From NCBI GenBank assembly GCA_001464965.1, contig LNEJ01000027.1, positions 17,003 to 81,002 of the forward strand: 64,000 nucleotides of DNA. Reading direction: 5' to 3'. This DNA is from Gammaproteobacteria bacterium Ga0074134. GTDB lineage: Bacteria > Pseudomonadota > Gammaproteobacteria > Ga0077554 > Ga007554. The notes under the pieces are model-generated. The model was not told the origin of the DNA, did no database searches, and saw only the letters and a program-made list of their open reading frames with translations. This document shows, in pieces, positions 3,229 through 54,387 of this stretch. The position numbers and the translations under genes are program-made. Each line of letters opens with the position of its first letter. The stretch's first letter is position 1.

Positions 3229-3382
3229 GGGAACCTCTGATGTGTCAGGAGTTTCTCGGTACATGGGCGTGCCGGCATTTTCCATGCACGTCAAGTGATT
3301 GAAAAATGAAGAAAAGCAAAAATCACATATTTTGCTTTTCGTGCGCTGAGAATCCCAGTGTGGAATTATTCAGAGCTTTCGG
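3229..3382. repeat. intergenic structured repeat, family 1, copy A (hairpin ggaacctctga...tcaggag plus aatgaagaaaagcaaaaatcacat...ctgagaatcccag..ggaattattcagagc)
   Basis: Highly similar to 21626-21775 and 54223-54372; its second module matches 22913-22988; a shortened version is at 16546-16640. Confidence 0.6.
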
Positions 3383-3892: not shown

Positions 3893-6160
3893 ATGTTAAG
3901 CAAGGACCTCGAATTCACGCTGAATATCGCCTTCAGAGAGGCGCGTGAGAAGTTGCACGAATTCATGACGGTCGAGCACTTGTTGCTCGCCTTGCTTGAT
4001 AATCCCGGGGCGGCTGCGGTATTGCGCGCTTGCGGCGCGGATCTCGACAGGCTGAAGAAAGATCTCGCCGCTTTTGTGGACGAGAGCACCCCGTTACTGC
4101 CCCCGCAGGATAAACGCGACACCCAGCCCACGCTGGGCTTTCAGCGGGTTCTGCAGCGCGCGGTGTTTCATGTGCAGTCCTCCGGAAAAAATGAAGTGCA
4201 GGCCGCCAACGTACTGGTCGCTATTTTCGGCGAGCAGGATTCACAGGCCGTCTACTTCCTCAACCGGCAGAACATCACGCGCCTGGACGTTGTGAATTAT
4301 ATCTCCCATGGCATCTCCAAGGTGCATGGCGAGGGCGAGGGGGCGCCGCACACGCCCTCCAGCGAGGACGAAGCGGGGGCAGAGGCGCCCGCCAAAAGCC
4401 CGCTTGAGCTCTATGCGGCCAATCTCAATCAGCTGGCCAGGCAGGGCAAGATCGACCCGCTGATCGGCCGCAAGCACGAAATCCAGCGCACCATCCAGAT
4501 CCTGTGCCGTCGCCGCAAGAATAACCCGCTGTTCGTCGGCGAGGCCGGCGTGGGCAAAACTGCGCTGGCCGAAGGGCTGGCGAAGATGATCATTGATGGC
4601 GAGGTGCCGGAGGTGCTGGCACATAGCACGGTGTATTCGCTGGATCTGGGCGCGCTGCTGGCGGGTACCAAGTATCGCGGTGATTTTGAAAAGCGCCTGA
4701 AAGGCGTGGTCAATCAGTTGCAGAAAGAAGCGGGCGCGATCCTGTTCATCGATGAGATTCATACCATCATCGGTGCGGGCGCAGCCTCCGGCGGGGTGAT
4801 GGACGCCTCTAACCTGATCAAGCCGGTGCTCGCCTCCGGTGCATTGAAGTGCATCGGTTCCACTACCTATCAGGAGTACCGCGGTGTTTTTGAGAAGGAC
4901 CGGGCCTTGGCGCGGCGTTTTCAAAAGATCGATGTGGCCGAACCCACGGTTGATGAGACGGTGCAGATTCTGGAAGGCCTGAAATCACGCTTTGAAGAGC
5001 ATCATCATGTCAAATACTCCAAGCAGGCGCTGCGTGTGGCGGCGGAACTGGCGGCGCGCTACATCAACGACCGTTATTTGCCCGACAAGGCGATTGACGT
5101 GATCGACGAGGTGGGGGCGAATCAGCACTTGCTGCCTGTCTCCAAACGCAAAAAAGTGATCGGCGCCAAGGAGATAGAGGACATCATCGCCAAGATTGCA
5201 CGTATTCCGCCCAAGAGCGTTTCCAGCTCCGACAAAGACGTGCTGCGCAATCTGGAGCGTGACCTGAAGATGCTGGTGTTTGGCCAGAACGATGCCATCG
5301 AGGCATTGGCATCTGCAATTAAGATGTCGCGGGCCGGCTTGGGCAATGCGCAAAAACCCATAGGCTCTTTCCTGCTCGCTGGCCCCACCGGCGTGGGCAA
5401 GACCGAAGTGACGCGCCAGCTTGCCAAGGTTATGGGGATCGAACTGATCCGCTTCGATATGTCCGAATACATGGAGCGCCATACCGTGTCGCGCCTGATC
5501 GGTGCGCCGCCGGGCTACGTGGGCTTTGACCAGGGCGGCCTATTGACCGAGGCGGTTACCAAGCACCCTCATGCGGTGCTGCTGCTGGATGAGATCGAGA
5601 AGGCGCATCCGGATGTTTTCAACATTCTATTGCAAGTGATGGATCATGGCACACTCACGGACAATAACGGGCGCAAGGCCGATTTCCGCAATGTGATCCT
5701 GATCATGACCACCAATGCCGGTGCGGATCAGATGAGCCGCAGTTCCATCGGTTTTGTACATCAGGATCATGCCAGCGACGGCACGGAGGCGATCAAGCGC
5801 TTGTTCAGCCCTGAATTCCGCAACCGCCTGGACGCCATTATCCAGTTCAAGCCGCTGGACAGCGCTACCATCGCCTTCGTGGTGGACAAGTTCATCATTG
5901 AGCTGGAGGCCCAGCTGGAAGATAAGAACGTGACACTCGAAGTCGACAATACCGCCCGGCAGTGGCTGGCCGAGCATGGTTATGACGAGAAAATGGGTGC
6001 GCGCCCGATGGCACGGATCATCCAGGAGCACATCAAGCGCCCCCTGGCCGAAGAACTGCTGTTTGGCAAGCTCGCGCGCGGCGGGCATATCCGCATCAGC
6101 GTAAGTGATGGCAAGCTGGCATTCGCGCTGGAAGGCGCGGAACAACTGCAGGAAAGTTAG
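3893..6160 (+). CDS. clpA: ATP-dependent Clp protease ATP-binding subunit ClpA
   Basis: 755 aa with two AAA+ modules (GEAGVGKT and GPTGVGKT) and the ClpA N-domain MLSKDLEFTLNIAFREAREKLHEFMTVEHLLLALL. Confidence 0.9.
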   Translation: MLSKDLEFTLNIAFREAREKLHEFMTVEHLLLALLDNPGAAAVLRACGADLDRLKKDLAAFVDESTPLLPPQDKRDTQPTLGFQRVLQRAVFHVQSSGKNEVQAANVLVAIFGEQDSQAVYFLNRQNITRLDVVNYISHGISKVHGEGEGAPHTPSSEDEAGAEAPAKSPLELYAANLNQLARQGKIDPLIGRKHEIQRTIQILCRRRKNNPLFVGEAGVGKTALAEGLAKMIIDGEVPEVLAHSTVYSLDLGALLAGTKYRGDFEKRLKGVVNQLQKEAGAILFIDEIHTIIGAGAASGGVMDASNLIKPVLASGALKCIGSTTYQEYRGVFEKDRALARRFQKIDVAEPTVDETVQILEGLKSRFEEHHHVKYSKQALRVAAELAARYINDRYLPDKAIDVIDEVGANQHLLPVSKRKKVIGAKEIEDIIAKIARIPPKSVSSSDKDVLRNLERDLKMLVFGQNDAIEALASAIKMSRAGLGNAQKPIGSFLLAGPTGVGKTEVTRQLAKVMGIELIRFDMSEYMERHTVSRLIGAPPGYVGFDQGGLLTEAVTKHPHAVLLLDEIEKAHPDVFNILLQVMDHGTLTDNNGRKADFRNVILIMTTNAGADQMSRSSIGFVHQDHASDGTEAIKRLFSPEFRNRLDAIIQFKPLDSATIAFVVDKFIIELEAQLEDKNVTLEVDNTARQWLAEHGYDEKMGARPMARIIQEHIKRPLAEELLFGKLARGGHIRISVSDGKLAFALEGAEQLQES

Positions 6161-6167
6161 TGTTGTG

Positions 6168-6190
6168 GGGGGAAGCCTTACCCCCTGCGC
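6168..6190. terminator. hairpin between the convergent clpA and infA genes (possible bidirectional terminator)
   Basis: A G6...C5 inverted repeat (gtggggggaagccttaccccctgc) lies between the two stop codons. There is no clear U-tract. Confidence 0.3.
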
Positions 6191-6209
6191 AACCGGCGGC
6201 TACGCGGAC

Positions 6210-6428
6210 TCAGCGGGCGCGGAAGGTGATGCGCGCCTTGCTCAGGTCATAAGGAGTCATTTCCACCGTAACCTTATCGCCGGTCAGAATGCGGATGTAG
6301 TTCTTGCGCATTTTTCCCGAGATGTGAGCCGTTACAATGTGGCCGTTATCAAGCTGTACCCGGAACATGGTATTGGGCAGGGTTTCCAATATCGTTCCTT
6401 CCATTTCAATATGATCTTCTTTTGCCAT
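6210..6428 (-). CDS. infA: translation initiation factor IF-1
   Basis: [53 protein letters not shown] is near-identical to bacterial IF-1. Confidence 0.95.
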
Positions 6429-6563
6429 GCAAATAATAGTGCTCTTGATGAATAATCATGGATGCCGAGCCAGGTTCACCCTGGCTTAATGAACCATTTT
6501 GCCTGAATCCAGTATGATTGGCAAAGTTTGTGTTATAAATTTGAGGTGCAATGTTTCTAAGCG

Positions 6564-8423
6564 GTGGCTGACAAACAAGATAAAGCAGAGGGCTATGGAA
6601 TGGTTCGTTGCATGGGCAGTAGTGGAGGCGGAAAAATCCTGAGGGTGATGTTTGCCTTGTTCGCCGTGGCGTCAGGGTTGCTGCTTGCGGGGTGCGGTTC
6701 CAGCGGAGGCGGTCCAAGTGGCGGGGGTGACACCACCAAGCCTTCCGTCATGCTCACCAGTCCTGCCAAGGATGCCACTGGCGTACCCGTCGCCGCCGTG
6801 CTTGCGGCTTCATTCTCCGAGGCCATGAAGGTTTCGACCATCTCCGATGTCACGTTCATCGTGAACGCGGGGAGTGACCAGGTTGCCGGAAAAGTCGCTT
6901 TCAGCGCGCTCTCCAATGCCGCGACTTTCACGCCCGATGCCCCCCTTAAGTACGATACAACCTATACCGTGACGATCAAGGCGGCGTCTGTAACGGATAT
7001 GTCAAACAATTCGTTGAATGCCAACTCGCCGGCGGGAGATTATGTCTGGAGCTTTACCACTACCCGGTCTGGCGCGGTGGATACCAGCTTTGGTGACGGT
7101 GGAACAGGTATAGGTACAGGTACAGGTAATGCCTCTGCCGCGATCACCCCATTTTCACCTCACGGCTCAAGTGAGGCTAGGTCCGTCGCCATCCAGCCGG
7201 ATGGTATGATCGTCGTCGCAGGTTCGGCGTGGAATGGCCGCGACTGGGATTTTGCGCTGGCTCGCTATAACCCGGAGGGCATCCTGGATACGACTTTTGG
7301 CCCGAATCGTACCGGTATAATGGTGCTTGATCTCGGCGGTGGTAAGCATGACATTGCGCAATCTCTGAAGATCGACACCAACGGCAAGATTGTGGTGGCG
7401 GGATTTGTTGCCAAAGGCCCCAACGACAACGACAACGACTTCGCCCTTGTGCGATTGAACCCGAATGGCACGCTTGATACCAATTTTGGAACGGACGGTA
7501 TCGTCACTACCGATTTCAACGGGCAGAATGATGTGGTTTATGCGCTTGCGATTCAGCCGGATGGGAAAATTGTTGTGGCGGGTTTTAGCAGTACGCGAGG
7601 TACGGCTACGTCTACCATCTTTGTTGATGCATACCAGGCCAATCCCATTATATTTGGAAGCGGTTTGACCGTATTCGATTTTGCGTTGGCCCGCTACGAC
7701 CAATCCGGCAAGCTTGATACCAGCTTCGGTAACGGGGGCATGGTCACCACGGCTGTTGGCGATAATGCCAGCGTTGCTCGTGCCATTGCTCTTCAAGCGG
7801 ACGGCAAGATTGTTGTGGCGGGGTATGCTGATCAGAACGCCCAAGCCAACTTCGCGTTGGCCCGCTTTGATGAGAACGGTAACCTGGATGCTGAGTTTGG
7901 CATTGGCGTCCGCGCTGGCAAGGTTATTACACCTATCGCGTCAGGCAAGGATAATGGAGCTCTGTCCGTGGCTATTCAGCCGGACGGCAAAATCGTCGCG
8001 GCCGGTACCGTTGAGAATGTTTTCGGCGGTACGGATTTCGGCCTTGCCCGCTATAACCGTGACGGTACTTTGGATAGCGATTTTGCGGGTGATGGCACAG
8101 TGATCACAGCCGTTGGCCCAAATGGCGGTGCCGTAGCTTTCGCTGTCACCGTTCAGGGGGATGGCAAGATCCTCACGGCGGGAGTGGCCTCAAATGGCAA
8201 GGACGATGATTTTGTCATGGTTCGCTATGGTGTGAATGGCTCTCTGGATAGCGGTTTTGGATTGGGTGGAAGGGTGACTACACCTGTGCGTTCCGGGGCG
8301 GATGTGGCATTTGCGGTAGCGATTCAGCCAGCGCTAGACAACAAGATCATCATGGCAGGAAGAAGCCTGCGCCCCAGCAATAATAGTATCTATGATTTCG
8401 CCCTGGTCCGTTATTGGCCATAA
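6564..8423 (+). CDS. lipoprotein with an N-terminal Ig-like (SbsA/Big_5-type) domain followed by about 8 delta-60-type beta-propeller repeats
   Basis: Lipobox LLLAGCGSSGG. The Ig-like segment is TTKPSVMLTSPAKDATGVP...YTVTIKAASVTDMSNNSL. The unit D(T/S)xFGxxG...A(I/L)AIQPDGKIVVAG...DFALARY recurs about every 55-60 aa. The true start may be M at 6600 or 6648. Confidence 0.6.
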   Translation: MADKQDKAEGYGMVRCMGSSGGGKILRVMFALFAVASGLLLAGCGSSGGGPSGGGDTTKPSVMLTSPAKDATGVPVAAVLAASFSEAMKVSTISDVTFIVNAGSDQVAGKVAFSALSNAATFTPDAPLKYDTTYTVTIKAASVTDMSNNSLNANSPAGDYVWSFTTTRSGAVDTSFGDGGTGIGTGTGNASAAITPFSPHGSSEARSVAIQPDGMIVVAGSAWNGRDWDFALARYNPEGILDTTFGPNRTGIMVLDLGGGKHDIAQSLKIDTNGKIVVAGFVAKGPNDNDNDFALVRLNPNGTLDTNFGTDGIVTTDFNGQNDVVYALAIQPDGKIVVAGFSSTRGTATSTIFVDAYQANPIIFGSGLTVFDFALARYDQSGKLDTSFGNGGMVTTAVGDNASVARAIALQADGKIVVAGYADQNAQANFALARFDENGNLDAEFGIGVRAGKVITPIASGKDNGALSVAIQPDGKIVAAGTVENVFGGTDFGLARYNRDGTLDSDFAGDGTVITAVGPNGGAVAFAVTVQGDGKILTAGVASNGKDDDFVMVRYGVNGSLDSGFGLGGRVTTPVRSGADVAFAVAIQPALDNKIIMAGRSLRPSNNSIYDFALVRYWP

Positions 8424-9142: not shown

Positions 9143-9855
9143 ATGTCGCAAGGCTCGCATTCAATCCGCCACGGCGCGGGGTGGCCTGGTATGTCACGCC
9201 ATTGTTCCAATAACTTCTTGAAGCCGGCGCGGCTGATATCCTCGGCTCCCAGGCTCTGCAAGTGGCCGGAGCCTACCTGGCAATCAATCACGGCATAGCC
9301 CCAGCGCTCAAGTTGGCGCACCAGGTGGACAAAGGCCACCTTGGAGGCATCCGTAACGCGGCTGAACATGGATTCACCGAAAAACACCCTGCCGATTGCG
9401 ATACCATAAAGTCCGCCCGCCAGCTCATCTCCGCGCCAGGCCTCTACGGAGTGGGCAATGCCCATCTCATGCAGGCGGCAATAGGCATCGAGCATCTCGC
9501 TGGTGATCCATGTGCCCGCGCCATCAGTGCGCGGCGCGGCGCAGCCCTGCATCACCTGACGGAAGGCGGTATCCAGTGTTACCTTGAATTCTCCCTTTTT
9601 GAGCGTCTTGCGCAGGCTGCGCGATACTTTCAGGCGTGATGGAAACAGAACGGCACGGGGGTCGGGGGACCACCAGAGTATGGGTTGCCCGTCACTGTAC
9701 CAAGGGAAAATGCCGCAGCGATAGGCATTGATCAGACGTGCGGGCGCGAGATCGCCACCCGCCGCCAGCAGGCCGTTCGGTTCGCGGAAGGCGTATTCAA
9801 CGGGGGGGAATGAATGCGCGCCGTTAGCGGGGTTTATCCAAAATAACGTGCTCAT
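9139..9855 (-). CDS. aat: leucyl/phenylalanyl-tRNA--protein transferase
   Basis: LLAAGGDLAPARLINAYRCGIFPWYSDGQPILWWSPDPRAVL is the Aat signature. Confidence 0.9.
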   Translation of the reverse strand: MSTLFWINPANGAHSFPPVEYAFREPNGLLAAGGDLAPARLINAYRCGIFPWYSDGQPILWWSPDPRAVLFPSRLKVSRSLRKTLKKGEFKVTLDTAFRQVMQGCAAPRTDGAGTWITSEMLDAYCRLHEMGIAHSVEAWRGDELAGGLYGIAIGRVFFGESMFSRVTDASKVAFVHLVRQLERWGYAVIDCQVGSGHLQSLGAEDISRAGFKKLLEQWRDIPGHPAPWRIECEPCDI

Positions 9856-9966
9856 GTCAGAACGCCGGTTCCAGGGAAACGAGGCCGCATTTCCAACTCC
9901 ATGAAATAAATGAAATTATTCCAATTGTCTGGATTTGATGCCGATATCTTGAGACAATTATAAAAG

Positions 9967-12342
9967 ATGTCATCCCAATCCTCTCAAAAAGATTCACCTT
10001 CCCCTCTTGGTCGTAACTGGTTTGCTCGCGGCTGGGGCAGCCCTGCTGTCAGGTATGTGCTGCTCATGGTGCTGCTGGCGGTGGTGGCTTATATCGCCTA
10101 TCTTGATCATACCGTGCGCAGCCAGTTCGAGGGTAACCGCTGGGCGCTGCCGGCGCAGGTTTATGCGCGCCCGCTCGAGCTTGTCCCTGATGCCCGCCTG
10201 AGTAGCGCGCAATTCGCGGAAGAGTTGCACATGCTGGGATATCGCCAGACCAAGGGCGAAAGGCTCACGGGCAGCTATGTGCGTAATGGGGACGAATTCC
10301 GGGTGGTGACGCGCCCCTTTACCTTTGGCGACGGCAGGGAAAATTCAGTTGCCTTGCGGGCGGTATTTTCCGCTGACCACCTGGTGAGTTTGCAGCACCT
10401 GGACAGTGGCAAGCCTCTGCCGCTGGTGCGTTTCGATCCTGTGCTGATCGGCAAAATCTACCCGGCGCACAATGAGGATCGGGTTTTTGTGCGCCTTAAA
10501 GAGGTGCCAGCTCCCCTCGTCAAGGGTTTGCTTGCCGTGGAAGACCGTAATTTCCGTGAACATCACGGCATAGACCCCATCGCCGTGGTGCGCGCCCTAT
10601 GGGCCGATGTGCGGGCGCGGGAGATGGTGCAGGGCGGCAGCACCTTGACCCAGCAGCTGGTGAAGAACTTTTTCCTCAGTAATGAACGCACCATGACGCG
10701 CAAGCTCAAGGAGGCCATCATGTCATGGCAGCTTGAGTGGCATTATGAGAAAGACGAGATATTTGAAGCCTATTGCAATGAAATCTACTTGGGGCAGTCC
10801 GGCAAGCACGCCATACACGGTTTTGGGCGCGCTAGCTGGTTCTATTTCCGCCGCCCGCTGAGCGATCTGCAGCTGCCCGAGTTGGCCCTGCTGGTGGGAT
10901 TGGTGCGCGGGCCGTCCTATTATGATCCGCGCCGTCATCCCGGACGTGCTCTTGCCCGCCGTAACCAGGTGCTGCAAATAATGGCGGAGCAGGGCGGCAT
11001 TACCGAAGCACAGGCACGCACCGCACAGGCCGCGCCGCTGGGTGTGACGGCCAAAGCGGCAAGCAGCGCAGCGCTTTCTCCCGCCTTCATAGATCTGGTG
11101 CGCCGCCAGTTGCGGCGCGATTATCAGGAACAAGACCTGAATTCGGCCGGTTTGCAAATCCTTACCACGCTCGACCCGCTGGTGCAAAACGCTGTGGCAG
11201 GCGCGATTAAAGGCCGTGTTGAAAGCCTGGAAAAACAGCAGCGCTTGCCTGCGGGCAGCCTGGAAGGGGCTGCGATTGTCACCAGCAGCGACGGTGGCGA
11301 AGTGCTGGCGGTGGCGGGTGGACGTGATGCCGACTCCACCGGTTTTAACCGTGTGCTGGATGCCAGGCGTCCCATCGGATCGTTGGTAAAGCCGGCCGTG
11401 TACCTCACTGCGCTGGCTAATCCCAAGAAATACACGTTGATCAGTCTGCTCGACGATGGTCCGCTGACACTCAAGAATCCCGGTGGGCAGCCCTGGAGGC
11501 CCTACAACTACGACCGGCAGTTTCATGGCTGGGTGCCTCTCAAAACCGCGCTGGCGCGCTCCTATAACCTCGCCACCGTGCGGCTGGGCATGGGCGTTGG
11601 CGTAAAGAATGTGCTGCATACGATGGAAAGCCTCGGAGTCAAGGAAAAGCTCAAGCCTTACCCTTCGGTGCTGCTTGGGGCCGCCGAACTGACGCCTTTC
11701 GAAGTCACTCAGATGTACCAGACGCTAGCCAGCGGCGGCTTCAACACCCCGTTGCGCGCCATTCGCGAGGTATTGAGCGTCGAGGGCAAACCGTTGCGGA
11801 GCTATGACATGACTGTCAAGCAGGCCTTTGATCCCGCCCCGGTCTATTTGCTCAATCGCGCGCTGCAGGATGTCATGCATAGCGGCACTGGGGTATCCCT
11901 GTACTCACGCGTGCCATGGTCATGGTCAGTGGCGGGAAAAACAGGTACTACCGATGATTTACGCGATAGCTGGTTTGCGGGATTCACCGGAGACCGGCTG
12001 GCGGTGGTGTGGATGGGCCGCGATGATAATCGCCCGACGGGGCTGAGCGGCGCGACCGGCGCATTACAGGCTTGGGGTGATGTTATGATGCGCATTGGCG
12101 CACAACCGTTGCGCCTGGAAGCGCCAAAAGGTATTGAGTGGGTCTGGATTGATCAACAGACACGCTTGCGCAGCATGGAGGGATGCGCGGGAGCCGCGCA
12201 GATGCCGTTTATGCGCGGCTCGGCCCCTGTGGAGATGGCGCCTTGCCTTGAGGGACCCGCCACTCCTGCCGATGCTGTTAGCGATACACTGAACAATGCA
12301 GTAGACAAAGCCGTTAACTGGCTCGACGAGGTATTGCGATGA
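9967..12342 (+). CDS. mrcB: penicillin-binding protein 1B (bifunctional glycosyltransferase/transpeptidase)
   Basis: 791 aa with an N-terminal TM helix, a UB2H-like segment, GT51 motifs (EDRNFREHHGID, GGSTLTQQL), and the transpeptidase SxxK/KTG motif (KTGTTDD). Confidence 0.9.
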   Translation: MSSQSSQKDSPSPLGRNWFARGWGSPAVRYVLLMVLLAVVAYIAYLDHTVRSQFEGNRWALPAQVYARPLELVPDARLSSAQFAEELHMLGYRQTKGERLTGSYVRNGDEFRVVTRPFTFGDGRENSVALRAVFSADHLVSLQHLDSGKPLPLVRFDPVLIGKIYPAHNEDRVFVRLKEVPAPLVKGLLAVEDRNFREHHGIDPIAVVRALWADVRAREMVQGGSTLTQQLVKNFFLSNERTMTRKLKEAIMSWQLEWHYEKDEIFEAYCNEIYLGQSGKHAIHGFGRASWFYFRRPLSDLQLPELALLVGLVRGPSYYDPRRHPGRALARRNQVLQIMAEQGGITEAQARTAQAAPLGVTAKAASSAALSPAFIDLVRRQLRRDYQEQDLNSAGLQILTTLDPLVQNAVAGAIKGRVESLEKQQRLPAGSLEGAAIVTSSDGGEVLAVAGGRDADSTGFNRVLDARRPIGSLVKPAVYLTALANPKKYTLISLLDDGPLTLKNPGGQPWRPYNYDRQFHGWVPLKTALARSYNLATVRLGMGVGVKNVLHTMESLGVKEKLKPYPSVLLGAAELTPFEVTQMYQTLASGGFNTPLRAIREVLSVEGKPLRSYDMTVKQAFDPAPVYLLNRALQDVMHSGTGVSLYSRVPWSWSVAGKTGTTDDLRDSWFAGFTGDRLAVVWMGRDDNRPTGLSGATGALQAWGDVMMRIGAQPLRLEAPKGIEWVWIDQQTRLRSMEGCAGAAQMPFMRGSAPVEMAPCLEGPATPADAVSDTLNNAVDKAVNWLDEVLR

Positions 12343-16545: not shown

Positions 16546-16640
16546 AAGGAACCCATGATTAATCATGGGTTCCGCGACACAAGGAGGTACTCTGAGAATT
16601 CCAGGGTGAAATTACTCAGAGCTTCCTTAATAGGCTGTCA
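16546..16640. repeat. family 1 repeat, shortened copy B
   Basis: A perfect palindrome ggaacccatgattaatcatgggttcc is followed by ctctgagaattccagggtgaaattactcagagcttccttaat, which is shared with copy C. Confidence 0.45.
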
Positions 16641-18141: not shown

Positions 18142-18975
18142 TCAGCGATGGTTTCTATGCCCCTTGTTTTTGATCGTGTCTTCGTAAAGCGGCATAACGA
18201 TCGGCATCAGCGCTTCCATGTCCTGAATCCGCGATTCAGGGGCGGGATGGGTGCTCAGGAACTGGGGCGGACCGGAGCCGTCCGCCGCCAGCATCTTGTT
18301 CCACACGCTGATCCCAGCGCGCGGGTTGAAGCCGGCACGGGCAGCCAGTTCAAGGCCGATACGGTCGGCTTCCCGTTCATCTTTTCGTGAATGAGGCAAG
18401 GTTAACCCGACGGTCGCGGCTTGTTGCAAAACATCGAGCTGTGTGGCATTCATTCCGGTGAGAATGGATAATCCTGCGAATATGGCTTGCTGCCCGAGCG
18501 CCTGGGACATCTGTTCGCGCGAGTGTTCACGCAGCGCATGGGCGATTTCATGCCCCATTACGACGGCAATTTCATCGTCGGTGAGTTTGAGTTTGTTGAT
18601 CAGGCCGCTATAAACCCCAATTTTCCCGCCCGGCATGCAAAAGGCATTGATCTCATCGCTATTGAACAGGCTGATTTCCCATTTCCAGCTTAGCGCATCG
18701 GAACGGAATACGGCAGTTTGAGGTATGATGTTGTTGGCTATTGCAACCAGGCGGTCATACTGTTTTTTATCGCTGTTGAGCGCGCCGCGTGCCGCAGCCT
18801 GTTGTTTTAACTGTGCGTATTGGGCGCTTCCGGCACGCTGCGCATCCTCTTCCGAAACGATCATGAACTGTTTGCGGTCAGCGCCCACCGCACCGGACTG
18901 TGTCGTGCTTTCCGTGGCGCAGCCGGTCATCATGGCGGCGCTCATGCAGGCGATCAGTAATGTCTTCATGCGCAT
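18142..18975 (-). CDS. M48-family zinc metalloprotease lipoprotein
   Basis: HEIAHALREH (HExxH) followed downstream by a glutamate motif. Lipobox LLIACMSAAMMTGCAT. Confidence 0.75.
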   Translation of the reverse strand: MRMKTLLIACMSAAMMTGCATESTTQSGAVGADRKQFMIVSEEDAQRAGSAQYAQLKQQAAARGALNSDKKQYDRLVAIANNIIPQTAVFRSDALSWKWEISLFNSDEINAFCMPGGKIGVYSGLINKLKLTDDEIAVVMGHEIAHALREHSREQMSQALGQQAIFAGLSILTGMNATQLDVLQQAATVGLTLPHSRKDEREADRIGLELAARAGFNPRAGISVWNKMLAADGSGPPQFLSTHPAPESRIQDMEALMPIVMPLYEDTIKNKGHRNHR

Positions 18976-19136
18976 GGTTTGTTTTGTCGTCACTGTATGA
19001 AATTCCTTCATATCTATATACCGCATATGCCATGGTGGTTACGATTATAATGGCAATTATAACTTAGAACCTGTTCTTAATATGCGCTGCCTGCCCAGAC
19101 TCAGCGTTGAATCCACGGCAACATTAAAAGTGACCT

Positions 19137-19694
19137 ATGGCCCTTAAAGCAACTATTTTTAAAGCCGAACTGCAAATCGTCGACATGGATCGTAACTACT
19201 ACCACGATCATATCCTCACCATTGCCCAGCATTCATCGGAAACCGACGAGCGCATGATGGTGCGCTTATTGGCCTTTGTGCGGCACGCTCATGAGGCATT
19301 AGTGTTTGGCAAGGGACTGAGCGCCGATGATGAGCCAGACCTCTGGCAAAAGGATTTAACCGGCGCCATCGAAACCTGGATAGATGTGGGCTTGCCCGAC
19401 GAAAAACGGATTCGCAAAGCCTGTGGTCGCGCCCGGCATGTATTCATTTATAATTATGGCGGCCGTAGTGCTGATATCTGGTGGGATCAAAACAGCGGCA
19501 ATCTTGAACGGCTGAAAAATCTCACAGTGATAAACCTGCCAATGGCTGTAAGTCAATCCCTGGGGAAGCTGGCGCAGCGCAATATGCAGTTGCTATGTAC
19601 CGTGCAGGATGGGCAGATTTGGCTAGCCGACAAGAGCGACACGGTACAGGTAGACGTGGTGATGTTAAAAACCCCGTCGCCCCATTTACGTTGA
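19137..19694 (+). CDS. yaeQ: YaeQ-family protein
   Basis: MALKATIFKAELQIVDMDRNYYHDHILTIAQHSSETDERMMVRLLAF is the YaeQ N-terminal signature. Confidence 0.8.
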   Translation: MALKATIFKAELQIVDMDRNYYHDHILTIAQHSSETDERMMVRLLAFVRHAHEALVFGKGLSADDEPDLWQKDLTGAIETWIDVGLPDEKRIRKACGRARHVFIYNYGGRSADIWWDQNSGNLERLKNLTVINLPMAVSQSLGKLAQRNMQLLCTVQDGQIWLADKSDTVQVDVVMLKTPSPHLR

Positions 19695-19707
19695 TAAACT
19701 GAAAAAG

Positions 19708-19877
19708 CCATGACAAATATTATTGTTGCTGCCTTATACAAATTTGCAAACGCTGTGAAAAGGCCACATCCTTCATGCTGGAGCAGGGATTCGAAGAGGT
19801 CTACCACCTGCAAGGCAGTATTCTAAAATATCTGGAAAAGATCCCCGCTGAAAAAAGCCTGTGGTAAGGCGGATGTT
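19708..19877 (+). pseudogene. internally deleted remnant of trhO (first 13 codons fused to about 115 nt of the 3' end)
   Basis: 19708-19748 matches 21984-22024 and 19749-19877 matches 22530-22655 of the intact trhO. About 500 bp are missing and the frame is broken. Confidence 0.6.
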
Positions 19878-20070
19878 TTTTGAAATTTGCCGGGAAAGCG
19901 CAATGTACCTGGAAAAGGACTCTGTTTTTGAGGCCGCTACGAATATAAACTCTAACAATCGCATGTGCGCGGATGGTAAAAAGCACCGCTCGTTCTTCAC
20001 TCTGCTTTTTGCTGGCGGTGATGCGAAACGTTAGCCAACACGCGACATCTACCACCAAAGGAGATATACC

Positions 20071-21528
20071 ATGAGTGACAAAAAGAAGCTGACCACCAAT
20101 GCTGGCTGTCCAGTAGCTCATAATCAGAACGTAATGACAGCCGGGCCACGTGGCCCGCAATTGCTGCAGGATGTCTGGTTCCTGGAAAAACTCGCCCATT
20201 TTGATCGCGAAGTGATCCCCGAACGACGCATGCACGCCAAGGGATCCGGTGCCTATGGCACGTTTACCGTTACGCACGACATTACGCAGTACACGCGGGC
20301 TAAAATCTTTTCCCAGATTGGCAAGAAAACTGAGCTATTCGCGCGTTTCACCACGGTGGCCGGTGAGCGTGGCGCGGCCGATGCCGAGCGCGACATTCGC
20401 GGTTTTGCCGTCAAGTTTTACACCGAGGAAGGCAACTGGGATATGGTCGGTAACAATACCCCGGTATTCTTCCTGCGTGATCCGCTCAAGTTCCCCGACC
20501 TGAACCACGCAGTCAAGCGCGACCCGCGCACCAATATGCGCAGCGCGAAGAACAACTGGGATTTCTGGACGTCCCTGCCGGAAGCCCTGCACCAGATCAC
20601 CATTGTCATGAGTGACCGTGGCATTCCGGCGACTTACCGGCACATGCACGGCTTCGGCAGCCACACTTTCAGCTTCATCAACGCAAAGAACGAGCGGTAC
20701 TGGGTCAAATTCCACTTCAAGTCGCAACAGGGCATCAGGAACTTGACCGATGCGGAAGCCGAGGCGATCATCGGCAAGGACCGCGAGAGCCATCAGCGCG
20801 ACCTCTACGAGAGCATCGAAAAGGGTGACTGCCCGAAATGGACGCTGATGGTGCAGATCATGCCTGAAGCCGACGCCGCGAAGGTGCCCTATAACCCCTT
20901 CGACCTCACTAAGATCTGGCCACACAAAGACTATCCGCTGATCGAGGTGGGCGTAATGGCGCTGAACCGCAATCCTGAAAACTTCTTCGCCGAAGTCGAA
21001 CAGTCGGCTTTCAATCCCGCCAACATTATACCGGGCATTGGTTTCTCGCCGGACAAGATGTTGCAGGGGCGGCTCTTCGCCTACGGTGATGCGCAGCGCT
21101 ATCGGCTAGGCGTGAATCACCACCTCATCCCCGTCAATGCTGCGCGCTGCCCCGTGCACAACTACCACCGCGACGGCACGATGCGCACCGATGGCAACTT
21201 TGGCAGCACGCTCGGCTACGAGCCCAACGACCAAGGCGAATGGGCTGAACAGCCGGACTACAGCGAACCACCGCTGGCGCTCTCGGGTGCCGCCAACCAC
21301 TGGAACCACCGTGAAGACAGCGACTATTACTCACAACCCGGCGCGCTGTTCCGTTTGATGAGTCCTGCACAGCAGCAGGTGTTGTTTGACAATACCGCGC
21401 GTTCCATTGGTGGAGCGCCTCACGGCATCCAGATTCGGCATGTTGGCAACTGCCTCAAGGCCGATCCTGCTTATGGCGAAGGCGTAGCCAAAGCACTGGG
21501 TATTTTGTTGAGTGAAATTCCGAGATAA
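20071..21528 (+). CDS. katA: monofunctional haem catalase (small-subunit, clade 3 type)
   Basis: 485 aa with [18 protein letters not shown]-type motifs ([24 protein letters not shown]) and the distal His/Asn and proximal Tyr regions. Confidence 0.9.
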
Positions 21529-21544
21529 ACAGTGCCGGTTAATT

Positions 21545-21650
21545 TCACGGTTATGCACCGTTCAGCATGGGCAGATTTGGCTGGCCGATAAGGACTGTGC
21601 GGTGCAGGTAGACTTGATGATGTTAAGGAACCTCTGAATAATGCAGAGGT
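21545..21650 (+). pseudogene. duplicated fragment of the yaeQ 3' end
   Basis: Translates to ...CTVQDGQIWLADK..VQVD.MML, about 80% nt identity to 19598-19665. The remainder of the yaeQ tail (cccatttacg) resumes at about 21927 after the inserted repeats. Confidence 0.5.
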
Positions 21651-21775
21651 TCCTCGGTACATGGAGGTGCTGGCATTTTTCGATCACGGAAAGTGATTTT
21701 AAAATGAAGAAAAGAAAAAACACACTATGCTTTTCGTGCTCTGAGAATTCCAGGATGGAATGATTCAGAGCTTCC
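21626..21775. repeat. family 1 repeat, copy C (full)
   Basis: Perfect hairpin ggaacctctgaataatgcagaggttcc plus the aatgaagaaaag...ctctgagaattccaggatggaatgattcagagcttccttaat module. Confidence 0.6.
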
Positions 21776-21926
21776 TTAATCCTACTGTGTCACAAAGCTA
21801 TCAAGGGATTGCAGCGCAAGGCAAAGTCGGGCGAAAAAGCGGAGTTTACATGGAGTAAATGAGCACAAGAGTCCGATTTTAACGCCGTAATGCGCCCTTC
21901 AGCGCTTTGTGACACAGTAGGATTAA
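21776..21926. repeat. 151-bp MITE-like element with perfect 23-bp terminal inverted repeats (ttaatcctactgtgtcacaaagc / gctttgtgacacagtaggattaa)
   Basis: The TIRs were read directly. The element abuts family 1 copy C and splits the duplicated yaeQ tail. Confidence 0.55.
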
Positions 21927-21983
21927 AAAACCCGTGGTCCCATTTACGGCCCCCTTGCTTTGTTTGATAGACTTAAAAAATCC

Positions 21984-22913
21984 ATGACAAATATTATCGT
22001 TGCTGCCTTGTACAAATTTGCAAAACTGCCTGACTACCGGGACATGCAGCCGGGTATGCTCGATTTTTGCGTCGCACAAGGGCTGAAGGGAACCCTGCTG
22101 CTTGCTGCCGAAGGCATTAACGGCACCGTCGCAGGCACCCGTGCCGGGATTGATGCCCTGATTGCATTTCTGCGCGCGGATGCGCGGCTTGCGGACTTGG
22201 AGCACAAGGAATCTTATGCCGCTGAAATGCCTTTTTACAGGATGAAGGTTCGCCTGAAAAAGGAAATCGTCACGCTGGGTGTGCCGGGCGTCGATCCAAA
22301 CGAGAAGGTCGGTATCCGGGTGGCCCCGGAAGATTGGAATGCCCTGATCTCTGACCCTGATGTGGTACTGATTGATACACGAAATGGCTATGAATACGAT
22401 ATTGGCACTTTTCGCGGTGCGGTTGATCCCGATACTGATACATTCCGCGAATTTCCGGACTATGTCAGCAAAAACCTCGACCCCGTAAAACATAAAAAGG
22501 TCGCCATGTTTTGCACCGGCGGCATTCGCTGTGAAAAAGCCACATCCTTCATGCTGGAGCAGGGATTCGAAGAGGTCTATCACCTGCAAGGTGGTATTCT
22601 AAAATATCTGGAAAAGATCCCCGCTGAAAAAAGCCTGTGGGAAGGCGAATGTTTTGTGTTTGACCAGCGTGTGGCTGTCGGGCATGGTCTGGCATTGGGT
22701 GAATATGACCAATGCCATGCCTGCCGTTACCCCGTGTCTCCACAAGAAAAAGCCTCGCCAAAATACCAGGAGGGCATATCCTGTCCACACTGTTTCGACT
22801 CTCTGACGGAAGAGAAGCGCGTCAGCTCGGCGGAGCGGCAAAAACAAGTCGAGTTGGCGCTCAAGCGGGGCACGGCACACCTCGGTGCGCCGCAGAAAAA
22901 GCGAGGCGCTTAA
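21984..22913 (+). CDS. trhO: rhodanese-domain tRNA U34 hydroxylase TrhO (YceA family)
   Basis: [18 protein letters not shown]... with the rhodanese active-site CTGGIRCEK and a C-terminal Cys cluster. Confidence 0.8.
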
Positions 22914-22988
22914 TGAGGAAAAGCAAAAATCATATTTTTTGCTTTTCGTGCTCTGAGAATTCCAGGATGGAATTATTCAGAGCTTTCT
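22913..22988. repeat. family 1 repeat, copy D (module 2 only)
   Basis: aatgaggaaaagcaaaaatcatattttttgcttttcgtgctctgagaattccaggatggaattattcagagc begins at the trhO stop codon. Confidence 0.5.
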
Positions 22989-22991
22989 ATA

Positions 22992-24461
22992 TCAAGATGA
23001 GCAACTCACTGTAATGTGACGAGCCCATTCCGGCGGCGTTGCAGCATAATCCTCCATCCCCGGCTGTTCGCTAAAAGGATCTTGGAGCAATTTCAACAGT
23101 CGGTCTACTTCTGAAAAATCGCGCCCCTGTTCGGCCTTGTTGATGGCGGTCTGCGCCAAATGATTGCGTAGAATGTACTTTGGATTGACTTTGTCCATGC
23201 GTATTTTGCGTTCCTCATCCGAACCTTGTTCCCGTTGCAAGCGGGCGCGGTAAGATTCACTCCAGGCATCGAACGCTGTGCGGTCTATGAATTGGTCGCG
23301 CAACGCAGTGTTTTTCTCGCCGGGTGCCGAGTTGAAATTTCCTAAGCCGCGGAACAGGTTGGTGTAGTCGGCCTGGCTGGTGTGCATCATCTCCAAAAGC
23401 GTATTAATCAGTGTATCGTCTTCCTTGCTTGCGTGAGCCAAGCCCAGCTTCTGCCCCATCAATTCCGTATAATGTTTGGCGTATGCCGGGCCATAGTTTT
23501 GAAGTGCTGCTTCCGCATCTTCCATCGCAATGACCGGCGTCAATGCCTGTGCCAGGCAGGCGAGATTCCATAGGCCGATTTGTGGCTGTTGATTATAGGC
23601 GTAGCGCCCGGCAGGGTCGGAATGGTTACAGATATAACCGGGATCGTAATTTTCCATGAAGCCGAACGGGCCATAATCAAAGGTGAGCCCCAGGATAGAC
23701 ATGTTGTCGGTGTTCATGACGCCGTGGGAGAATCCCACGGCTTGCCATCGGGCCATCAGGGTTGCGGTGCGCGTTACGACTTCATCGAGAAAGCGCGAGT
23801 ATTTGTCCGGTGCGTCCATCAAGGGTGGGAAATGCTTGGCGATCACGTAATCGGCAAGCATCGCAAGGAGCTGGTTCTGTCCACGATAAAAAAATACTTC
23901 AAATGAACCAAAGCGTACGTGCGAAGGCGCGATGCGCGTAACCACCGCAGCAGTTTCAGCGGTCTCGCGGTAAACCCTGTGATCGCTGCCCACGATACAC
24001 AGGGCGCGTGTGGTAGGGATGCCCAGGCCATGCATGGCCTCCGAGCACAAATACTCACGGATGCTGGAGCGAAGCACGGCGCGGCCATCGCCATTTCGCG
24101 AGTACGGGGTACGCCCGGCGCCTTTGAGCTGGATATCCCAGTATTCCCCCGCGCTATTCTTTATTTCACCGAGCAATACGGCGCGCCCATCTCCCAGTTG
24201 CGGCACATAGTGGCCAAACTGATGTCCCGCATAGAGCATCGCCAGCGGCTCGCAACCGGGCAGCAAACGGTTGCCGCTGAAATATTCAGCGAAGTCAGCG
24301 CGCTGGGTTTCGGCGCTGTCCAGGTCAATCAACGGGGCGGCGTTCGTGTTGAAGCTAACCAGATAGGGATCAGGCAACGGGGTGGGGTGGAGGCGGCTGT
24401 GGAATATGTCCGGCAGGCGGGCAAACGTATTATCAAATCCAAGCTGTTCAAGTTTTCGCAT
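22992..24461 (-). CDS. selO: protein adenylyltransferase SelO (YdiU/UPF0061)
   Basis: 489 aa. N-terminus ...FARLPDIF..; AGHQFGHYVPQLGDGRAVLLGE; the kinase-like fold motifs of SelO. Confidence 0.85.
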   Translation of the reverse strand: MRKLEQLGFDNTFARLPDIFHSRLHPTPLPDPYLVSFNTNAAPLIDLDSAETQRADFAEYFSGNRLLPGCEPLAMLYAGHQFGHYVPQLGDGRAVLLGEIKNSAGEYWDIQLKGAGRTPYSRNGDGRAVLRSSIREYLCSEAMHGLGIPTTRALCIVGSDHRVYRETAETAAVVTRIAPSHVRFGSFEVFFYRGQNQLLAMLADYVIAKHFPPLMDAPDKYSRFLDEVVTRTATLMARWQAVGFSHGVMNTDNMSILGLTFDYGPFGFMENYDPGYICNHSDPAGRYAYNQQPQIGLWNLACLAQALTPVIAMEDAEAALQNYGPAYAKHYTELMGQKLGLAHASKEDDTLINTLLEMMHTSQADYTNLFRGLGNFNSAPGEKNTALRDQFIDRTAFDAWSESYRARLQREQGSDEERKIRMDKVNPKYILRNHLAQTAINKAEQGRDFSEVDRLLKLLQDPFSEQPGMEDYAATPPEWARHITVSCSS

Positions 24462-24548: not shown

Positions 24549-24938
24549 ATGAATATGCCGACGAAGAAATCACAACCCAATAACGACAAGCTGGACCGGA
24601 TCGTAGCCGAGGCCCAGCGCAACAAGGCGCAGCGGGAGTTGGGCTATCGGGAACAATCACTCAAGCTCTACCCCTGGATATGCGGACGGTGCATGCGCGA
24701 GTTCACCCGGGAAAATCTTCGGGAGCTCACCGTCCATCACCGGGACCACAATCACGACAATAATCCGTCCGATGGGAGCAACTGGGAGTTGCTATGTATT
24801 TATTGCCATGACAATGAGCACTCACGGTACCTGGATGCCGCTGGGCAGGGCGCTGTGACGCCGGGCAGCCAGCAAGAGAGCTCGGCCCAATTCAAACCGT
24901 TTGCCGATCTCAAGGCGCTGTTGAAGGGTAAAGAGTAG
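24549..24938 (+). CDS. yajD: HNH nuclease YajD family
   Basis: LKLYPWICGRCMREF...LRELTVHHRDHNHDNNPSDGSNWELLCIYCHDNEHS matches E. coli YajD closely. Confidence 0.75.
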   Translation: MNMPTKKSQPNNDKLDRIVAEAQRNKAQRELGYREQSLKLYPWICGRCMREFTRENLRELTVHHRDHNHDNNPSDGSNWELLCIYCHDNEHSRYLDAAGQGAVTPGSQQESSAQFKPFADLKALLKGKE

Positions 24939-24967
24939 CTGTTTTAGAGTCTGTTTAAGAGTGTCAA

Positions 24968-25492
24968 TTATGCCACTCTGCCGTAGGGCAGGGAGGATGA
25001 CTGATCGCGGCCTGCAACCCTTTCTGTTTGGATCATCCGCAACATCTGCAAGGCTTCCCGTGCGCTGTGCGACACATTCATTGGGCTTCCGGAAACACCG
25101 GCAACATGACCGCTTGGGTCGATAATGAAGGTGGCATACTCGGCCATACCCTCTTCCCCGGAGAGCACCCCAAAGCAGCTGGCGAGCTGGCGCGTGGCAT
25201 CGCCGATGAGGGGGAAGCCGATTTTGCCTAGACCGTTGGTGGTCCAGGCACGATGCGCATAAACGCTGTCCACGCTTGCACCGAGCAATATCGCGCCACT
25301 TTCCGTGAATTGCCTGGCCAGGTCGTGGTAGGCGCGGATGTTCATAAGGCAGGTAAAGGTGAAATCCCACTGCCAGAAGAACAGCACCTTCCATCGGCTG
25401 CGATGTTCACCCAGATTGATTATGCGGTAGTCGCCATGAGGGGTAAGGGCTTCGACGTTGATGGCAGGGATGGTTTGTCCGATGGTTAGCAT
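24968..25492 (-). CDS. AhpC/TSA-family peroxiredoxin-like protein with an atypical active-site context
   Basis: Thioredoxin-fold pattern KVLFFWQWDFTFTC. The Cys is followed by LMN, not the canonical PTE. Confidence 0.55.
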   Translation of the reverse strand: MLTIGQTIPAINVEALTPHGDYRIINLGEHRSRWKVLFFWQWDFTFTCLMNIRAYHDLARQFTESGAILLGASVDSVYAHRAWTTNGLGKIGFPLIGDATRQLASCFGVLSGEEGMAEYATFIIDPSGHVAGVSGSPMNVSHSAREALQMLRMIQTERVAGRDQSSSLPYGRVA

Positions 25493-25563
25493 AGCCGTGT
25501 CTCCTTCGTGGCGGTTGGGGTTTGATTATTTTCAGCCATAAAAAATATTCTACCCGTTCAATT

Positions 25564-25582
25564 GATAATGATTATCATTTAC
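25564..25582. promoter_or_regulatory. Fur box candidate
   Basis: GATAATGATTATCATTTAC matches the consensus GATAATGATAATCATTATC at 16 of 19 positions. It lies in an AT-rich stretch upstream of the peroxiredoxin-like gene. Confidence 0.45.
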
Positions 25583-25769
25583 ATTTACGGGTATTGTCAA
25601 GCCGCCTGGATGGATTTTTCCGCTTTTGTCTCTCCGGATGGGGTGAATTAGCCGCGCAAACCCTGCTCGAATTTCTGTGCCCTCTGTCCTTGATCGGCCG
25701 AATTTGGCCTGACAGTCATCACCAGAAAACCCGCTAACTGTCAGATCAGATCTGAACTTCTACAAACTC

Positions 25770-29241: not shown

Positions 29242-29685
29242 ATGGATAGCCTGCCCTCATTTTTGCGTGATAGCGAAGCCGCCGGGATGTATTTGCTTGA
29301 TACGGCGATTACCGCGATGGAGTTTGAAAGCGAGGCCAGGAAGTGTGGCTTCGCTTTTTTTTATCTGGAAGGAGGGAGCATCCTCAGTAAGGAGCAATTT
29401 TTGGAGCAGATCGCCCGCGCCATGGATTTTCCCGGCTATTTCGGTGGCAACTGGGACGCACTGGAAGACTGTCTCACGGATCTATCCTGGCGTGAAGCAC
29501 CAGGTTATGTGATTCTATACGACCATTTTGATGTTTTTGCCGAGCAGTTTCCGGATCAGTTCGAGACCGCGCTGGAAATTCTGGATGCGTCCATAGAGTT
29601 CTGGCGCGCGCAAGGTAAGCCGCTGTTTGTCATGTTGCGCGGAAAGGGTGGGCCGGAGTGGGGGTTGAAGCTGCTTACCTTCTAA
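29242..29685 (+). CDS. barstar-family ribonuclease inhibitor
   Basis: Barstar motifs ...FGGNWDALEDCLTDL... The start codon is 3 nt after the RNase stop. Confidence 0.75.
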   Translation: MDSLPSFLRDSEAAGMYLLDTAITAMEFESEARKCGFAFFYLEGGSILSKEQFLEQIARAMDFPGYFGGNWDALEDCLTDLSWREAPGYVILYDHFDVFAEQFPDQFETALEILDASIEFWRAQGKPLFVMLRGKGGPEWGLKLLTF

Positions 29686-29687
29686 GA

Positions 29688-29800
29688 ACCCTGTTCACGA
29701 TCTCGCTGAAGGGTGCATCGCGGCGTTAAAAATAGCCTCAAAATGCTCACATACTCCGTGTATGCTGCGCTTTTTCGGCTATTTTTGCCTTAACGGAGTG
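29688..29800. repeat. family 2 repeat (left half: gaaccctgttcacgatctcgctgaagggtgcatcgcggcgttaaaa...ctcaaaatgctcacatactc...)
   Basis: Matches the left TIR and core of the full copy at 36866-37008. The right TIR is absent. Confidence 0.45.
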
Positions 29801-29915
29801 AATGCCATAGACAGCAAGGGGCTTGGTAAAGTAGAATTCTGCTGATTAATCATAGCAATTATTGCAGCGGTGGGAGGGGTTTTATCCCGGTCTCCTGCCG
29901 CTTCGCACGTCTGAT

Positions 29916-35947: not shown

Positions 35948-36235
35948 ATAAAGTATCGATGGCCAAAGATAATGGTAAGCGGGAAAGTATAGCACAACGC
36001 AGGCGCGGCTTCATGGTGGCGGCCAGCCCGATGAATGCCGTAAAGCTTGAGCTGGCTGTCATATGCTGCGCTGGTGTGCTGCTATGGCTGGTGCAGGGGC
36101 GCGTTACGGATAACCAGATGGTCCAGCTCCTTCTGCTGGGCGGGTATGGGTGCGCAGGGATGTTGTGGATCGTTTTCCGCGCGCGGCGTGTGCTGACCAG
36201 GGCACAATCCAGTCAATATGATGAACGCCGGAATT

Positions 36236-36856
36236 ATGGCCAGGAGTAAAAGCAGCAGCCGCTGGCTGAAAGAGCATTTTGTTGACGCCTACGTCAAAAA
36301 GTCGTGGCAGGATGGCTATCGTTCCCGCGCGGCTTATAAGCTGCTCGAAATCAACGAGCGCGACCACATACTGCGGCCAGGCATGACGATAGTGGACCTG
36401 GGTGCGGCGCCGGGTGGCTGGTCGCAGATAGCCGCAAATATAGTGGGGGATAAGGGCAAGGTGATCGCCACGGATATCCTGCTGATGGAACCCCTGGCTG
36501 GCGTTGATTTCCTGCAAGGTGATTTTCGGGAGCAGGAAGTATTTGACAAGCTGCTCGAAATGGTCGCAGGCCGTAACGTGGGGCTTGTAATTTCCGATAT
36601 GGCGCCTAATATAACTGGTATGGCCTCGGTTGATCAGCCGCGCGCGATGTATCTTGCCGAGCTGGCGTTGGATATGGCGCGTAAGATTCTGGTCCCAGGC
36701 GGGGATTTTTTGGTGAAGGTGTTTCAGGGCAGCGGTTTTGATGCCTTCCACAAGGAGATTCAGCCCTTGTTTCAGAAGGTGCTGATCCGCAAACCCAAGG
36801 CGTCGCGGCCCGGCAGCCGCGAAGTCTATGTGCTGGCGAGGAACTTTCTTGGCTGA
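36236..36856 (+). CDS. rlmE: 23S rRNA U2552 2'-O-methyltransferase RlmE (FtsJ)
   Basis: [33 protein letters not shown]...[11 protein letters not shown]. Confidence 0.85.
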
Positions 36857-36865
36857 AATAGTCCT

Positions 36866-37008
36866 TAGAACCTGTTCACGATCTCGCTGAAGGGCGCATC
36901 GCGGCGTTAAAAGTGGCCTCAAAATGCTCACATACTCGTGTATGCTCCGCTTTTTCGGCCACTTTTGCCTTGCGCTGCATCCCTTGATCGAGATCGTGAA
37001 CAGGTTCT
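36866..37008. repeat. family 2 repeat, full copy with 19-bp terminal inverted repeats (gaacctgttcacgatctcg / cgagatcgtgaacaggttc) and nested internal hairpins
   Basis: The inverted ends were read directly. Inner stem gtggcc...ggccac. Confidence 0.55.
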
Positions 37009-37126
37009 TATAAAAAAGCATGACGAAACGCCGGATTAGTGGCGAAAAACGCATGGTCTGATAAATGCATTATGGCCAGTGTTGGGTTGATATATACTGT
37101 ATTTCTCTTAAAGCTGAGGCGCACAC

Positions 37127-54372: not shown

Positions 54373-54387
54373 TAACAGGTTGGGTGC

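Follow-up and report, generated by a model that had tools for sequence, protein, structure and literature searches.

In Campbell-type insertion-duplication, foreign DNA comes to lie between direct repeats of one host segment, and recombination between these repeats restores the locus. Bacterial miniature inverted-repeat transposable elements (MITEs) with terminal inverted repeats and TA or TTAA target duplications include the Correia, ERIC, and IS630-derived elements. In addition, "synthetic bridging fragments" have been used to engineer tandem duplications that carry a marker at the novel junction (PMC12607827), also in Acinetobacter baylyi (PMC12455638), and short engineered duplications of 2.6-3.3 kb persisted without selection (PMC12607827). 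Here, we describe a natural arrangement that can be compared with each of these systems. It lies in a stretch of 64,000 nucleotides of Gammaproteobacteria bacterium Ga0074134 (contig LNEJ01000027.1, hereafter referred to as the window), in which the catalase gene katA is located between two partial copies of the junction of the genes yaeQ and trhO. The locus is likely the scar of an old gene gain that is specific to one lineage.

The duplicated yaeQ-trhO junction and its empty sites

We compared positions 19000-23100 of the window with themselves by self-BLAST and a repeat finder. The off-diagonal repeats on which an earlier, sequence-only reading of this DNA had been built were recovered, with small corrections of their coordinates. 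The matching segments are 19746-19882 and 22522-22658 (93% identity, 137 nt, E 2e-45), 19702-19750 and 21976-22024 (94% identity), 19594-19668 and 21552-21626 (81% identity, E 2e-14), as well as 19665-19690 and 21923-21948 (88% identity). Together, they make up a duplicated host unit of ~0.8 kb, which consists of yaeQ nt 458-558, the spacer, and trhO nt 1-675 and is present in two direct copies, a left copy (L, 19594-19882) and a right copy (R, 21552-22658), in the same order and orientation. The end of L and the start of R abut an inserted segment of 1669 bp (19883-21551) composed of 188 bp, katA, and 23 bp, the left end of which is joined to trhO nt 675 and the right end to yaeQ nt 458. According to the listing of open reading frames (ORFs) for 18800-23400, yaeQ, the trhO remnant, katA, and trhO are all encoded on the + strand; a gene for an M48 peptidase (Pfam) lies upstream of yaeQ (Table 1).

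The redundant partial copies decayed after the duplication. In L, trhO codons 1-13 (19710-19748) are fused at 19750|19751 to trhO nt 544-675, and trhO nt 42-543 are missing, an out-of-frame internal deletion of 502 bp. Upon translation, the remnant ORF retains the trhO start and 13 residues before the frame is lost, and a G-to-T change in L additionally turns 19865-19867 into a TAA of the former trhO frame. Owing to the frameshift after codon 13, the remnant (19710-19882) does not encode UPF0176_N and rhodanese in one frame, the combination by which we recognized TrhO. The sequence-only reading had described this structure correctly, including a deletion of about 500 bp, and had placed it at 19708-19877; its ATG is located at 19710 and the homology extends to ~19882. 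In R, decay is seen in the second yaeQ tail, i.e., the last ~100 bp of the gene, which received two MITE insertions and one 15-bp insertion. This tail had been placed at about 21560-21625 plus 21927-21950 and is indeed present and split (21552-21626 and 21927-21948), its start being at 21552. A "family 1" repeat and a 151-bp element with perfect terminal inverted repeats had been proposed to split it in a nested manner. Both elements were found, and the inverted repeats of the latter are exactly 23 nt long; instead of being nested, the two are adjacent, and TTAA bounds each of them. The trhO gene that follows is intact, as had been stated. The reverse-strand ORFs 19773-20000 and 22549-22788, regarded as near-identical, are alike within the duplicated stretch, which amounts to just their C-terminal ~36 residues.

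A chimeric join at repeats during assembly or binning could mimic such a structure, and short-read contigs do break inside the repeats: three metagenome contigs (L005-L007) end at 19792 and two others (L002 and L003) start at 19835. However, among the metagenome contigs located by exact-protein look-up, those from several runs and assemblers (L001-L007) span every junction at 99.8-100%, and a 30-kb contig (L188) carries M48-yaeQ-remnant-katA-trhO-selO at 99.96%. An artefact was thus ruled out; we attach practically no probability to it.

We retrieved relatives of the locus by a TrhO search of a large protein collection and via the YaeQ 90% cluster. Six sister lineages (L088, L089/L090, L101-103, L104/105, L106, and L187) are 90-94% identical to the window at the nucleotide level across M48, yaeQ, trhO, and selO. 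In all six, the gene order is M48-yaeQ-trhO-selO, with an intact trhO beginning 15-30 bp after yaeQ, and none of them contains a catalase gene, a duplication, or a MITE at the yaeQ-trhO site. The comparison with relatives lacking the catalase, which the sequence-only reading had put forward as a check, therefore revealed an uninterrupted yaeQ-trhO junction in six out of six cases and intact duplicated genes in none. Overall, its picture of a duplicated yaeQ-tail/trhO junction with katA between the copies and later decay is supported by the repeats, the empty sites, the deletion, frameshift, and stop in L, and the insertions in R.

Outside this group, 80 yaeQ loci from species-representative genomes (L008-L087) reach at most 79% amino acid identity and have neither trhO nor a catalase gene within 8 kb, and they are not usable as an outgroup for the junction. 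TrhO relatives at 83% amino acid identity (L091-L094) are found in a different gene context. Since none of the 80 yaeQ loci has trhO within 8 kb, the adjacency of yaeQ and trhO is confined to the narrow group that includes the window. In more distant relatives of the Betaproteobacteria type, yaeQ and trhO were observed in separate neighbourhoods.

Table 1. Features of the katA locus, given as positions in the window.
Feature	Position	Strand	Basis
yaeQ, intact, 185 aa	19137-19694	+	Pfam YaeQ E 8.5e-77, full length; orthologous to yaeQ of L088, L101, L104, L106, L187
Left copy (L) of the duplicated host unit: yaeQ 3' end, 15-bp spacer, trhO remains	19594-19882	+	Matches 21552-21626, 21923-22024, and 22522-22658; also L088 4391-4547 and 5045-5177
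trhO pseudogene remnant	19710-19882	+	Translation; aligned to intact trhO and five orthologues
188-bp segment 5' of the catalase gene	19883-20070	+	Shine-Dalgarno AAAGGAG at 20057-20063
katA, intact clade-3 small-subunit monofunctional haem catalase, 485 aa	20071-21528	+	Pfam; PDB 2isa alignment
23 bp from catalase stop codon to right copy; right end of inserted segment	21529-21551	+	yaeQ homology begins at 21552
Second yaeQ 3' end, part 1; start of right copy (R, running to 22658)	21552-21626	+	81% to 19594-19668, 87% to L088 4391-4465; translation LCTVQHGQIWLADKDCAVQVDLMML
Family-1 MITE-like element, ~150 bp, TTAA-bounded	21623-21779	+	Alignment of five window copies; inverted-repeat check; fold
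151-bp MITE-like element, TTAA-bounded	21776-21926	+	Perfect 23-nt terminal inverted repeats TTAATCCTACTGTGTCACAAAGC; fold
Second yaeQ 3' end, part 2 (21927-21948), 15-bp insertion (21949-21963), and spacer before trhO	21927-21983	+	Alignments with L and orthologues
trhO, intact, 309 aa; first 675 nt within R	21984-22913	+	Pfam UPF0176_N and Rhodanese in one open frame; 90-93% nt identity to sister-lineage trhO
5'-truncated family-1 element between the trhO and selO stop codons	22912-22993	+	Self-comparison; without counterpart in L088
selO, convergent	22992-24461	-	Pfam SelO

Catalase, age, and origin of the arrangement

The frame of katA is uninterrupted. Its product matches PF00199 (E 2.2e-192, residues 8-388, 383-position model) and PF06628 (Catalase-rel, E 1.2e-19) and aligns end-to-end with PDB 2isa (E 3e-291), the haem-site motifs (distal His and Asn, proximal Tyr) being identical. 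The fact that the catalase stayed intact indicates that katA has been under selection. The nearest catalases are 85-90% identical at the amino acid level and are scattered over Competibacteraceae, Insolitispirillum, Methylococcaceae, Nitrosospira, Rhodocyclaceae, Nitrospira, and Methylospira. The closest of them reside in unrelated contexts (Zip-katA-SodC; deaminase-katA-SelU). The catalase comparison did not refute the picture drawn from the sequence. At the DNA level, the best match to katA is 83%, and the likeness ends ~12 bp 5' of the start codon. We searched the 80 best metagenome catalase loci and the contexts of the closest catalases for a donor; none exceeded 90% at the amino acid or 83% at the nucleotide level, and none was located near yaeQ or trhO. 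Likewise, the 188-bp segment upstream of katA had no match (blastn, tblastx) elsewhere in the window, in ~100 catalase loci, or in any of the relatives' loci, and neither regulator boxes nor palindromes were seen in it. A foreign origin of katA is suggested by the empty sites and by the scatter of its relatives over different taxa, and not by base composition.

No terminator or sigma-70-like promoter was predicted between the yaeQ stop codon and katA, where the scans performed no better than on shuffled sequence. This makes it plausible that katA is transcribed by read-through from the yaeQ promoter. In the inserted segment, katA is the sole ORF called; the ORF list and Pfam revealed no transposase or integrase, and the largest other ORF comprises 57 aa. 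An integron cassette or a transposon was ruled out, given that just 23 bp follow the stop codon, that there is no recombinase or transposase, and that the insert ends carry no inverted repeats.

We then aligned L, R, and the orthologues, which gave 289 positions for comparison. Of these, 29 differ between L and R, compared to 29-41 between L and the orthologues and 28-39 between R and the orthologues; private changes number 9 in L, 10 in R, and 4-8 in each sister lineage. Because L and R differ by ~10%, as much as sister species do, the event appears to be old, and the duplication most likely took place early on the window lineage's own branch. If the pseudogene copy evolves about three times faster than a constrained one, the 10% divergence between L and R would correspond to roughly half the age of the sister split, a value that rests on small numbers. 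Two states are shared exclusively by L and R, namely GCAAA in the region of trhO codon 13 and TGTTTT near nt 670. In neighbour-joining trees, L and R grouped together in 71% of the bootstraps, while no more than 3% placed R with any sampled sister lineage. Outgroup-polarised trhO sites that split L and R from L088/L090 are derived in the L088 clade and not in L and R.

The large divergence between the copies may be read in a different way. The group ancestor might already have possessed the duplication and the catalase gene, both of which were then lost by recombination between L and R in the ancestor of the empty-site lineages. A crossover of this kind between the direct repeats would leave a perfect yaeQ-trhO junction behind, the window lineage is sister to all empty-site lineages, and 29 differences in 289 positions are about as many as between species. 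We nevertheless prefer a gain in the window lineage, because a loss presupposes an earlier gain as well, which makes two events instead of one, and because L and R cluster and share the two derived sites that are missing from all others. Moreover, a pseudogene copy is expected to evolve faster, and 10% divergence would fit a duplication younger than the species split. Ancestral presence followed by loss thus seems quite improbable.

The same divergence would be explained from the outset if it separated a donor from its recipient. In a Campbell-type single crossover, a circle with the catalase gene and the yaeQ-tail/trhO-5' segment of a related strain would have recombined with the chromosome, and direct repeats of a contiguous host segment around foreign DNA are the signature of insertion-duplication. 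However, the insert consists of katA plus 188 and 23 bp and includes no replicon, backbone, or recombinase, and a circle that already joined katA to exactly this host segment would itself have to be explained. In addition, none of the six sister lineages sampled is closer to R than L is. The ratio of window-to-sister to sister-to-sister divergence is 1.39 at trhO nt 1-675 compared to 1.09-1.23 elsewhere (~59 differences versus 50 expected), and this segment is therefore not significantly more divergent than the neighbouring genes. Neither the per-segment divergence ratios nor the phylogeny lend significant support to an imported R, and we consider a crossover of this type very improbable.

For the gain itself, we propose the following course of events. 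In the ancestor, yaeQ and trhO would have been adjacent, 15-30 bp apart, and probably co-transcribed. A foreign fragment of 1.67 kb with the catalase as its only gene would have been inserted so that its left end met trhO nt 675 and its right end yaeQ nt 458. Illegitimate recombination would have connected the two ends of this linear fragment to staggered sites, located either on sister chromosomes or at a replication fork. One intact yaeQ on the left and one intact trhO on the right would have been kept, with ~0.8 kb of host DNA flanking the insert; both genes would have survived because the host segment was duplicated on both sides. Afterwards, the left trhO copy would have acquired its deletion and stop codon, and the right yaeQ tail the two TTAA-targeting MITEs and 15 bp. 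A single duplicative insertion by staggered joining, whether on sister chromosomes or at a fork, is our tentative preference, at slightly under an even chance. That the catalase gene and the 0.8-kb flanking duplication arrived in one step through a linear fragment joined to two sister chromosomes, as a natural "bridging" insertion, is possible, with odds clearly against it.

An identical final anatomy would result from two steps, in which a spontaneous tandem duplication over the yaeQ-trhO boundary, perhaps a larger one, was followed by a catalase fragment that entered or replaced its redundant middle (the trhO 3' end and the yaeQ 5' part). Insertion into a redundant copy is neutral, as is illustrated by the MITEs that later entered the second yaeQ tail, and short tandem duplications can persist unselected (PMC12607827). 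Yet two rare events at one place would be needed, and the duplication without the catalase gene was not found among the available contigs. We regard the two-step course as rather unlikely.

Several points weigh against a one-step gain of a foreign gene in the window lineage. The present sequence would fit two steps as well as one. The composition of katA (GC 0.572; GC at third codon positions 0.712, within the window range of 0.54-0.74, mean 0.637, sd 0.058) is not anomalous and is therefore uninformative with regard to a foreign origin, and no donor was found. The sisterhood of L and R is weakly supported by the two sites and the 71% bootstrap value, the pairwise distances being close to a trichotomy. 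Finally, the rooted trhO tree has the window lineage as sister to all empty-site lineages. On this tree, a single step suffices either way, be it a gain in the window lineage or, through recombination between L and R, a clean loss in the sister clade.

MITE-like elements and neighbouring genes

In R, the two small elements are arranged as TTAA-family 1-TTAA-151 bp-TTAA, and a single TTAA is present at the same position in L, L088, and the other orthologues. The elements are successive insertions at one target. Whether TTAA or TA is the duplicated target is not separable from the repeat ends. The terminal inverted repeats of the family-1 element are TTAAGGAACCTCTGA and TCAGAGCTTCCTTAA, in which 16 of the first 17 terminal positions match (17/20), and its predicted fold is a multi-hairpin structure (z = -6.35 versus shuffled sequence). 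The 151-bp element has inverted arms at 21776-21807 and 21895-21926 and folds into one long hairpin (z = -9.6 versus shuffled sequence). A terminator-like hairpin is contained in the family-1 element just 3' of katA. The 15-bp insertion at 21949-21963 (GCCCCCTTGCTTTGT) lies in the spacer of R just 5' of the intact trhO and is missing from L and from all six sister lineages; a promoter-like pair of hexamers (21968-21997) overlaps the trhO start.

Family 1 can be described as a MITE-like multi-hairpin element of ~150 bp with the termini TTAAGGAA(C/G)CTCTGA, which occurs in full, internally deleted, and 5'-truncated copies. We found five copies in the window (3257-3378, 16565-16631, 21623-21779, 22912-22993, and 54221-54373) and one in L101 (8503-8654); in the self-comparison, 21703-21781 matched 22912-22993 at 85% identity. 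The family is thus present in at least two species-level lineages of the group, both times at the trhO-selO junction. This junction harbours a full-length copy in L101, a 5'-truncated copy in the window, and none in L088, where both genes overlap. There, the element alters the C-terminus of TrhO; the protein comprises 309 aa in the window and 314 aa in L101, compared to 310-312 aa in lineages that lack the element.

Of the 151-bp element, the window contains one full copy and two core relatives with other termini (29670-29830 and 36860-37020 (-)). The relatives share with it a core of ~100 bp (GCAGCGCAAGGCAAA...TTTTAACGCCG...CCCTTCAGCG) and carry the different termini GAACCTGTTCACGATCTCG. A common core with different ends suggests that the ends are exchangeable within a superfamily of MITEs. 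One of the core relatives is located inside the mechanically called ORF 36104-37054 (-), which may not be a real gene over its full length. An Rfam scan of 19000-23200 yielded no family match, the sole item being a chance sub-threshold CRISPR-DR match inside katA. A cognate transposase was identified for neither element; insertion sequences (ISs) with matching termini were not sought outside the window.

Further mobile DNA was observed in the sister lineage L106 (GCA_040183005.1), in which two IS copies (5610-6776 and 9283-10449; DDE_Tnp_1 and DUF4372 transposase, 388 aa) flank yaeQ-trhO. One of them is located between M48 and yaeQ, and the other cuts selO to 221 aa. The yaeQ-trhO neighbourhood receives mobile DNA repeatedly in this group. 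Just past selO, an HNH-domain gene and an AhpC/peroxiredoxin gene are found in the window lineage and its sisters (window 24555-25660; L088 6997-7922; L188 8572-9509). This places the acquired catalase gene at most ~3 kb from another peroxide-defence gene, which may be coincidental.

Comparison with known systems

The locus represents a natural case with empty-site controls, in which a stress-defence gene was added inside a conserved gene pair while its neighbours remained intact and the redundant flanks decayed and attracted small mobile elements. It calls for no new mechanism and raises no long-standing question, as duplications, inserts at their junctions, pseudogene decay, and MITEs are all well known. 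The arrangement of a gene with 3' fragments of both its downstream and its upstream neighbour on its flanks might serve as a search template and could provide a means to estimate how frequent duplicative insertion is in gene gain. Should one-step bridging prove to be general, it could bring foreign genes into the interior of operons while function is preserved, and short pseudogene echoes on both flanks would be a recognisable genomic signature.

With regard to its individual components, katA is an ordinary member of the clade-3 small-subunit catalases (PDB 2isa; Pseudomonas aeruginosa KatA, 4e37; Proteus mirabilis, 1m85), which it matches over the full length (E 3e-291 to 1e-250) without any notable difference. 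The two small elements resemble bacterial MITEs in general features: both are 150-157 bp long, non-coding, intergenic, and strongly folded, and both have terminal inverted repeats. They have no match in Rfam, however, and the 151-bp element has just one full copy in the window.

The arrangement as a whole has in common with Campbell-type insertion-duplication that a contiguous host segment forms direct repeats around foreign DNA. In contrast to the latter, the locus includes neither a vector or backbone nor a recombinase, a donor homologue was not identified, and the copies are no closer to any sampled relative. Greater similarity in layout exists to the duplications obtained with bridging fragments, in which, as observed here, the end of the segment, the inserted gene, and the start of the segment follow one another and one intact copy of every host gene is retained. 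With ~2.5 kb (~0.8 kb of host DNA and 1.67 kb of insert), the unit is in the size range of those that persisted unselected, and its survival fits the persistence of engineered units of 2.6-3.3 kb without selection (PMC12607827). Bridging fragments differ in that they carry designed homologies of 75 bp in inverted order and make use of lambda Red, whereas here there is no known homology-bearing donor, the joints are probably illegitimate, and the event would be both natural and old.

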